A stretch of 64,000 nucleotides of DNA, taken from NCBI GenBank assembly GCA_964016885.1, contig OZ024743.1, positions 145,266,001-145,330,000 of the forward strand, written 5' to 3'. The notes under the pieces are model-generated. The model saw only the letters and a list, made by a program, of their open reading frames with translations, ran no database searches and was not told the DNA's origin. Origin of the DNA: Eledone cirrhosa. Its lineage: Eukaryota. The position numbers and the translations under genes were made by a program. How positions within the stretch are numbered: position 1 is the first letter of the stretch; every line of letters begins with the position of its first letter. Below, piece after piece: positions 207-564 of the stretch.

Positions 207-564
207 CATCATTCATCATCATCATTTCATTTTGCGTCCACTTTTCCCTGCTTGCGGGGGTGGGACGGGAGCTGATTCTGGCTTGATTTCTGCAGCTGGG
301 TGCCCTTCCTGGCGCCGACCTCGTTTGCAGTGAGTGCTGGGTGCTTTTTTGCCGTGGCGCCTCCTAGACCACTTTGCGATGGAATGATATGGACCCCGGT
401 CCCTGTCGTCTCATTTCTGCAGCTGAGTGGGCTGGAGCGGTGTGAGGTGGAGTGCCTTGCTCGGGGGGGGGGGGGGGGGGGGGGCACATCGCCCGGTCTG
501 GGGGTTGGGCTCGCGGCCTTTCGGTTGCGGGGCCAGTGCTCGGGCCACTGGGCCACGTGCCTCC
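207..564 (-). mobile_element. tRNA-headed SINE-like insert with apparent A>G hypermutation (on + strand)
   Basis: The minus strand starts GGAGGCACGTGGCCCAGTGG (tRNA A-box-like head) and ends in a (GAT)n tail. It is a GC-rich island between TA tracts and is strongly A-depleted on the + strand. Confidence 0.65.

Follow-up and report, generated by a model that had tools for sequence, protein, structure and literature searches.

A full-length SINE copy near the start of the window (the whole 64-kb stretch analysed here, part of a 379-Mb scaffold within a 3.0-Gb assembly) carries G in place of about two thirds of the adenines of one strand. It is probable, in our assessment, that this copy was edited by ADAR within double-stranded RNA and then reverse-transcribed into the chromosome as the passenger of an adjoining 607-bp retroposon. 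The A>G cluster itself is real in the assembly. A first-pass annotation, made from the letters of the window, had proposed that an edited transcript antisense to the SINE was copied back into the genome; the substitution spectrum, its strand, its neighbour bias and a set of other loci support this proposal, and supply the vehicle that the annotation lacked, a retroposon on the same strand.

Composition and substitution spectrum of the window SINE

The annotation had put the number of A's on the + strand at about ten in each of two stretches of the copy, all following G or C. The count is exactly 10 in 228-364 (4 CA and 6 GA) and exactly 10 in 420-564 (6 CA and 4 GA), each preceded by C or G, and within the 64 kb the only 120-nt segments without TA or AA are those of these two stretches. 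The G run that it had reported is likewise present (Table 1); the family has a short A/G-rich word at that place, the run being 12 bases longer than the family segment, and similar runs of 22 and 25 bases are found at the edited loci L040 and L049.

The copy belongs to a SINE family with a high copy number, a simple-repeat 3' tail and a tRNA-like head with A and B boxes, and evenly spaced samples totalling 590 kb contained 8 such heads, which puts the family at ~40,000 copies (95% range 18,000-80,000). In an unedited copy (L012) the Rfam tRNA model RF00005 matches the other strand (28.1 bits against a cut-off of 29, E 0.00067), so that the sense strand of the SINE is the - strand of the window and the G's lie on its antisense, as had been claimed. 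ARAGORN called no tRNA gene, and Rfam over 1-2500 returned no ribozyme, only microsatellite-driven matches under the cut-off. Since four sense-strand T's of the B box have turned to C, the RNA polymerase III promoter of the window copy is predicted to be dead.

A search with 207-564 gave 3,930 candidates, of which the best 40, mostly ~80% identical, were scored, and the column majority of 29 other genomic copies over 334 columns (219-564) served as the reference. Whereas typical family copies among the 30 aligned sequences show 2-9 differences from this majority, the window copy differs at 59 of the 334 columns, with 51 A>G changes, 2 T>C and 6 others (A>G against T>C, binomial p 3e-13). The alignment and substitution table suggested by the annotation thus revealed an excess of a single class rather than a balanced spectrum, in keeping with its impression of almost only A>G changes. 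The family is A-rich at these sites, which removes the possibility that the consensus is itself G-rich there; because the family has A, G is the derived state. Under a stricter count, in which five polymorphic columns were dropped and 59 control copies were used, 49 of 76 A's are changed, and the maxima among the controls are 4 A>G and 2 T>C, with C>T and G>A the commonest changes. By region, 13/25 A's are changed on the left and 34/44 on the right; the middle, which had been described as unedited, is in fact lightly edited (one of its four changes falls at a polymorphic column). An APOBEC-edited retroelement, for which plus-strand G-to-A would be expected, was rejected, the window copy having 1 G>A and 0 C>T.

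ADARs prefer 5' neighbours in the order U > A > C > G, and on the 3' side G is favoured and U disfavoured. The changed A's of the window copy follow the 5' order (T 10/11, A 20/23, C 15/29 and G 6/18; U/A 30/34 against G 6/18, p 9e-5), bearing out the 5'-G aversion that the annotation had invoked, and the 3' preference for G is absent here (G 7/15, A 19/23). Avoidance of 5' G is given as an ADAR signature in PMC2873906.

The first bases of the microsatellite beyond the SINE head may have been edited too. At 566-582 the window has G at five places at which 24 of 28 other pattern-matching copies are A-only, although the pattern was drawn from the window and this is a hint only.

Table 1. Features around the window SINE, and A>G changes at the ten clearly edited loci
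Feature	Positions	Strand	A>G changes or remark
607-bp unit, 3' end of a full-length copy starting 442 bases before the window	1..170	+	3 A>G of 160 A
AT/GT microsatellite, between upstream unit and SINE tail	171..206	+	
Full-length tRNA-headed SINE copy	207..565	- (sense)	+ strand A>G at 51/82 family A's
SINE 3' tail, 3-base repeats	207..229	-	+ strand A's unchanged, each after C
Lightly edited middle	365..415	+	4/13 A's changed; overlaps SINE internal palindrome
22-base G run	463..484	+	reads as A>G of an A/G-rich word, then 12 bases of lengthening
tRNA-like head	498..555	-	Rfam RF00005 match in unedited copy L012
B box	~502-512	-	assigned by established tRNA promoter anatomy
A box	~545-555	-	assigned by established tRNA promoter anatomy
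AT/ATGT microsatellite, between SINE head and downstream unit	566..1099	+	
Unit, full-length, young, likely carrier	1100..1706	+	0 A>G of 160 A
Six further unit copies (3 full-length, 3 5'-truncated), tandem, microsatellite spacers	1818..8057	+	0-4 A>G each
Window locus			49/76 edited
L044			16/76 edited
L039, inverted pair			12/77 and 15/50 edited
L040, 5' inversion			17/22 (part scored) and 16/33 edited
L041			25/73 edited
L047			8/20 edited
L042			14/58 edited
L043, inverted pair			7/71 and 6/29 edited
L049, sense strand			31/74 edited
L112, inverted pair, fold-back			6/40 and 9/47 edited

Edited copies elsewhere in the genome

Searches of the genome for further copies with strand-specific A>G clusters, in line with what the annotation had recommended, brought the number of clearly edited loci to ten, window included (Table 1; the five polymorphic columns left out), with edits on both SINE strands. 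Two of the best matches to the window SINE, L002 and L018, were A>G-skewed (17/21 and 13/21 differences), and nine more loci came from searches with patterns in which 2-4 A>G were forced, on one SINE strand or the other. Of the nine clearly edited loci besides the window, seven were found through such patterns, so that the set is a selected one and ten is a lower bound. Two weak cases, L111 (4/76) and L113, each with 4 edits of which 2 were forced by the search, were kept out of the clear set. A matched control search forcing two C>T returned 5 copies with mixed spectra and no cluster, and no skewed cluster was present among 15 family pieces in 59 evenly spaced 10-kb samples.

When 13 edited pieces from the nine other loci were pooled, excluding the window, the 5' neighbours of changed A's again ranked T 47/89 (53%), A 73/203 (36%), C 44/225 (20%) and G 18/153 (12%; p 4e-11), and the 3' neighbours ranked G 58/163 (36%), C 45/162 (28%), A 53/202 (26%) and T 26/143 (18%).

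At these other loci the A>G clusters track RNA duplexes and spare the adjoining retroposon. In L039, L043 and L112 two SINE arms are inverted relative to one another and both are A>G-changed on one genomic strand. L112 folds to a 150-bp hairpin (z -29) whose loop is the internal SINE palindrome, and in the sense arm of L043 the edits fall at 7/20 A's where pairing is possible against 0/51 elsewhere (p 6e-5). In L049 and L043 the SINE's own tail terminates the edited strand, which identifies the A>G strand as the RNA strand. L040 has, in RNA order, the same arrangement as the window (unit, microsatellite, antisense SINE, microsatellite, unit) with its 5' part inverted; its SINE halves meet at 202/203 of the reference, and the A>G changes of one half lie on the opposite genomic strand from those of the other. 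This geometry, a 5' inversion with abutting breakpoints, matches that of twin priming (PMC2912911), implying that the template was edited prior to insertion.

We weighed these loci against an artefact of assembly or polishing, in which the consensus would have absorbed either reads from edited cDNA or RNA-seq or a systematic error of base calling. The read check leaves some room for it: no RNA run was among those listed, no run matched more than 0.16 of the words and none covered 447-564, and of the contigs from 4 runs, 2 of them carrying the family, none covered 459-564 or spanned the copy. G runs of similar length recur at three edited loci (22, 22 and 25 bases), although G/C runs of 10-20 are common in the assembly (40 in 590 kb), and clustered systematic errors do occur in old trace data, but as G-to-A (PMC2873906). 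Against this, the edited copies lie on four large scaffolds (C1, C2, C3, C4 plus C8), and every one has a separate set of edits between unedited flanks; 20%-divergent reads would hardly polish single loci of a 40,000-copy repeat; and no such error would be expected to place edits on opposite strands of L040 with exact twin-priming breakpoints. We therefore consider an artefact improbable.

For the window SINE a hairpin partner was sought and no second copy was found within 20 kb upstream, 25 kb downstream or elsewhere in the window. SINEs of this family are often arranged head to head in pairs, folded back at the internal palindrome or bordered by inverted flanks (L014, L029, L084 and L112), and such paired or fold-back copies are a steady source of perfect double-stranded RNA. 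The adenosine-deaminase domain PF02137 is encoded at 4 places in the genome, which may include tRNA deaminase and ADAD genes; these matches show only that candidate enzymes are available.

The 607-bp retroposon as likely carrier

The annotation had asked which retroelement ends flank edited copies. The window SINE lies within an array of eight copies of a 607-bp unit, extending from 442 bases before the window to 8057. The unit is flanked on both sides by AT/ATGT microsatellite and holds a C2H2 zinc-finger remnant at ~1570-1641 (Pfam zf-C2H2, E 2.7e-5, 24.8 bits against a cut-off of 25.2), for which a protein-level search returned generic C2H2 clusters only. At least 39 other copies, dispersed in the genome, are 99-100% identical, and evenly spaced samples put the total at ~30,000 copies (11,000-66,000). 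Twenty copies are without the 5' end only, 1 without the 3' end only, 2 without both, and 40 are full, in a sample in which 29 loci had been chosen as full-length. Because it is young and dispersed, has microsatellite flanks, is found without its 5' end but hardly ever without its 3' end and contains a C2H2 remnant, the unit is, on its sequence features, a non-autonomous non-LTR retroposon, with a sense strand that is the edited strand.

The ends of the unit may be RTE-like. Among the loci examined no autonomous LINE partner was found, and the related short families that share the unit's 5' 400 bases showed no long partner; candidates for the partner's clade are RTE (PMC5786205, PMC9115989) and Dong-R4, both given as recently active in an octopus in PMC13282606. 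Older sister families (L128, L132, L138, L165, L009, L057 and L074) have the unit's 5' 400 bases at 70-82% and a similar 3' end with a different middle, and the unit and its sisters constitute a superfamily of short microsatellite-tailed retroposons.

The unit lies downstream of the SINE on the edited strand at 6/6 clearly edited antisense loci outside pure fold-backs and at 0/55 controls (p 2e-8), the controls having been scored within ~1.5 kb and 28 of them chosen for a microsatellite at the head; 4 of the 55 have a unit piece in another position or orientation. The gaps between edited SINE and unit are 26, 43, ~146, 534, ~640 and ~830 bases, the two loosest (L047 and L044, respectively) containing non-microsatellite DNA. 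The unit copies that adjoin edited SINEs are themselves unedited (0-4 A>G). No unit was seen near the sense-edited or pure fold-back loci L042, L043, L049 and L112, nor near the weak antisense locus L111; at the sense and fold-back loci this fits, since what terminates them is their own tail or microsatellite. An antisense SINE would have no tail of its own at the RNA 3' end and would thus need a carrier; a sense-edited copy has a tail that can serve it.

An unedited source cassette for the window was sought among 28 other copies that share the A-form head flank, none of which has the unit on both sides. Both ends of the window cassette fall in microsatellite, where no target-site duplication can be read. 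Taken alone, the window may also represent a separate SINE insertion between two units, and editing of RNA is inseparable there from deamination or miscopying of the cDNA strand, so that the case rests on the sequences of the other loci.

Several further features of the array and its surroundings were noted. At almost all of 29 loci (L051-L079) the microsatellites on either side of the unit are rich in G and have hardly any C on its sense strand, which may reflect target preference or tail slippage, editing of AU-repeat RNA being also possible. The microsatellite with which the array begins adjoins, just upstream of the window (L036, 7800-9360), a LINE fragment that is truncated at its 5' end and has a reverse-transcriptase region on the - strand; a similar LINE 3' end lies upstream of the edited SINE of L047. 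Inside the array a block of unit, long microsatellite and truncated unit occurs twice in tandem (1707-6484; ~1707-4090 and 4091-6484). Beyond it, a 591-bp unit is repeated 2.8 times at 100% identity (8570-10226), either a very recent duplication or an assembly artefact, and the remainder of the window, 24608-64000, is occupied by a satellite array of ~600 copies of 66 bp (93-94% alike) that continues past the window's end.

The association with the carrier also bears on deamination of DNA, with ADAR acting either on the cDNA strand of an RNA:DNA hybrid as the SINE inserted or on an R-loop in place. ADARs edit DNA in DNA:RNA hybrids of model substrates (PMC12925331), a similar neighbour bias would be expected, and the window copy has both its full length and a tail of its own, its + strand being the SINE cDNA strand. 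However, the own-tail, sense-edited copies L049 and L043 have A>G on the RNA strand; the edits of L043 stop at the end of the duplex, where a hybrid would span the insert from end to end; the units that adjoin edited copies are themselves unedited; editing in place could hardly yield opposite strands in L040; and deamination of DNA gives no reason for antisense-edited copies to lie upstream of a unit. We accordingly regard it as unlikely, on a par with an artefact. Nucleotide-pool hypermutation is known for retroviral reverse transcriptases, and error-prone reverse transcription of a sense SINE RNA (G placed opposite U when dATP is low), giving U>C on the RNA strand, would fit the sense-strand T>C of the window by itself. 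It would not produce A>G on the RNA strand as in L049 and L043, and it leaves unexplained the confinement to duplex arms, the 5' order U > A > C > G with 3' G, and the link to the unit, which makes it very unlikely. Ordinary mutation followed by the spread of a G-rich subfamily is scarcely credible: a few family columns are A/G polymorphic and L039 and L041 share 10 edits, but most edited pairs share little beyond hot spots, G-form patterns of the window match 1-3 places in 3 Gb, substitutions of the other kinds number 7, a background level, and the B box is broken.

Proposed route, precedents and meaning

The observations that ~65% of the + strand A's are now G, with the 5' preference U > A > C > G, and that clusters elsewhere follow RNA duplexes are most readily joined as follows. 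A + strand transcript would have run through unit, microsatellite, antisense SINE, microsatellite and unit, and its SINE part would have paired with a sense SINE, either in the source transcript or in trans. The passenger may owe its place to read-through of a source cassette or to a template switch. After editing, a LINE reverse transcriptase would have primed on the 3' tail of the unit, with a microsatellite as the target, and copied inosine as if it were G. The new G run would then have slipped longer, and the outcome would be a heritable SINE copy with a dead promoter.

Parts of this route have precedents. ADAR-type A-to-G hyperediting kept after reverse transcription is described for the U3 of a Rous-associated virus (Felder 1994) and for an inverted repeat of avian leukosis virus (Hajjar and Linial 1995), both as described in PMC12925331. 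As in these avian retroviruses, up to about half of the A's or so are changed to G in an RNA duplex that reverse transcriptase then copies to DNA; the present case differs in that the edited element is a tRNA-derived, non-LTR SINE found in the assembly of a host genome, at no fewer than ten loci and on both strands, with the antisense edited SINE riding on a separate non-autonomous retroposon. APOBEC editing of DNA has been fixed in LTR retrotransposons of vertebrate genomes (PMC4866542, PMC2873906), where clustered mutations with strand and context bias against the family consensus likewise mark single, crippled copies; there the changes are G-to-A by cytidine deamination of cDNA, whereas here they are A-to-G by adenosine deamination and follow RNA duplexes, and the earlier work filtered for G-to-A and set non-LTR elements aside. 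Transcripts with inverted SINE pairs are edited A-to-I (Alu, B1/B2; PMC9148063), as are repeats in squid transcripts (PMC9068888), with a similar substrate and neighbour bias, but in RNA only rather than in genome sequence.

The carriage of the SINE resembles LINE-mediated transduction and twin priming (PMC2912911), in which a passenger lies upstream of a retroposon 3' end and 5' inversions have abutting breakpoints, and it resembles the bipartite non-autonomous LINEs of the RTE, Ingi, Vingi and R2 clades (PMC5786205) in its short non-coding carrier, 5' truncations and microsatellite tail. It departs from transduction in that the passenger is hyper-edited; membership of the unit in one of these clades and a bipartite origin for it are candidate readings. 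Deaminase-driven, RNA-templated reverse transcription has also been hypothesized to rewrite a gene in place by homology (PMC12941027); that proposal shares the appearance of A-to-I as A-to-G in DNA after reverse transcription, while our evidence points to new insertions. For coleoids, PMC7703385 treats genomic A-to-G changes at edited positions as a matter of mutation and selection. In the literature searched, most subscription papers and supplements being outside its scope, no account of SINE copies hyperedited by ADAR in a genome assembly came to light, and the covered parts of PMC13282606 and PMC9148063 make no mention of genomic edited SINE copies.

Editing may also have happened in rounds. 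L039 and L041 share a spacer present only at these two places, with the unit joined at the same position, and 10 of L039's 12 edits are common to both (hot-spot expectation mean 4.9, p 0.0008), each having private edits besides; an unedited source was sought and the spacer was found only at these two edited loci. Either an edited copy was re-transcribed, re-edited and re-inserted, or one source RNA has strongly preferred sites. We raise as a tentative idea, one we would not yet favour, that this genome has a working, repeated route by which a young microsatellite-targeting retroposon inserts ADAR-edited RNA into the germline, re-transcription and re-editing forming an A-to-G ratchet. If true, such a ratchet could carry pieces of edited mRNA too.

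Few copies are known to be involved, at least 10 out of roughly 40,000. The edited SINEs nevertheless provide a fossil record, kept in the genome, of ADAR at work in cells whose DNA is inherited, and thereby a measure, from DNA only, of the site preference and duplex extent of past germline editing. They indicate that hyper-edited SINE-containing RNA is not just retained or destroyed, but can be reverse-transcribed and inherited. The lost B box of the window copy raises the question of whether ADAR restricts SINEs by mutagenesis; for human LINE-1, restriction by ADAR1 is reported to be editing-independent (PMC12925331). If the host is a coleoid, the finding would bear on whether heavy editing feeds back into the genome.
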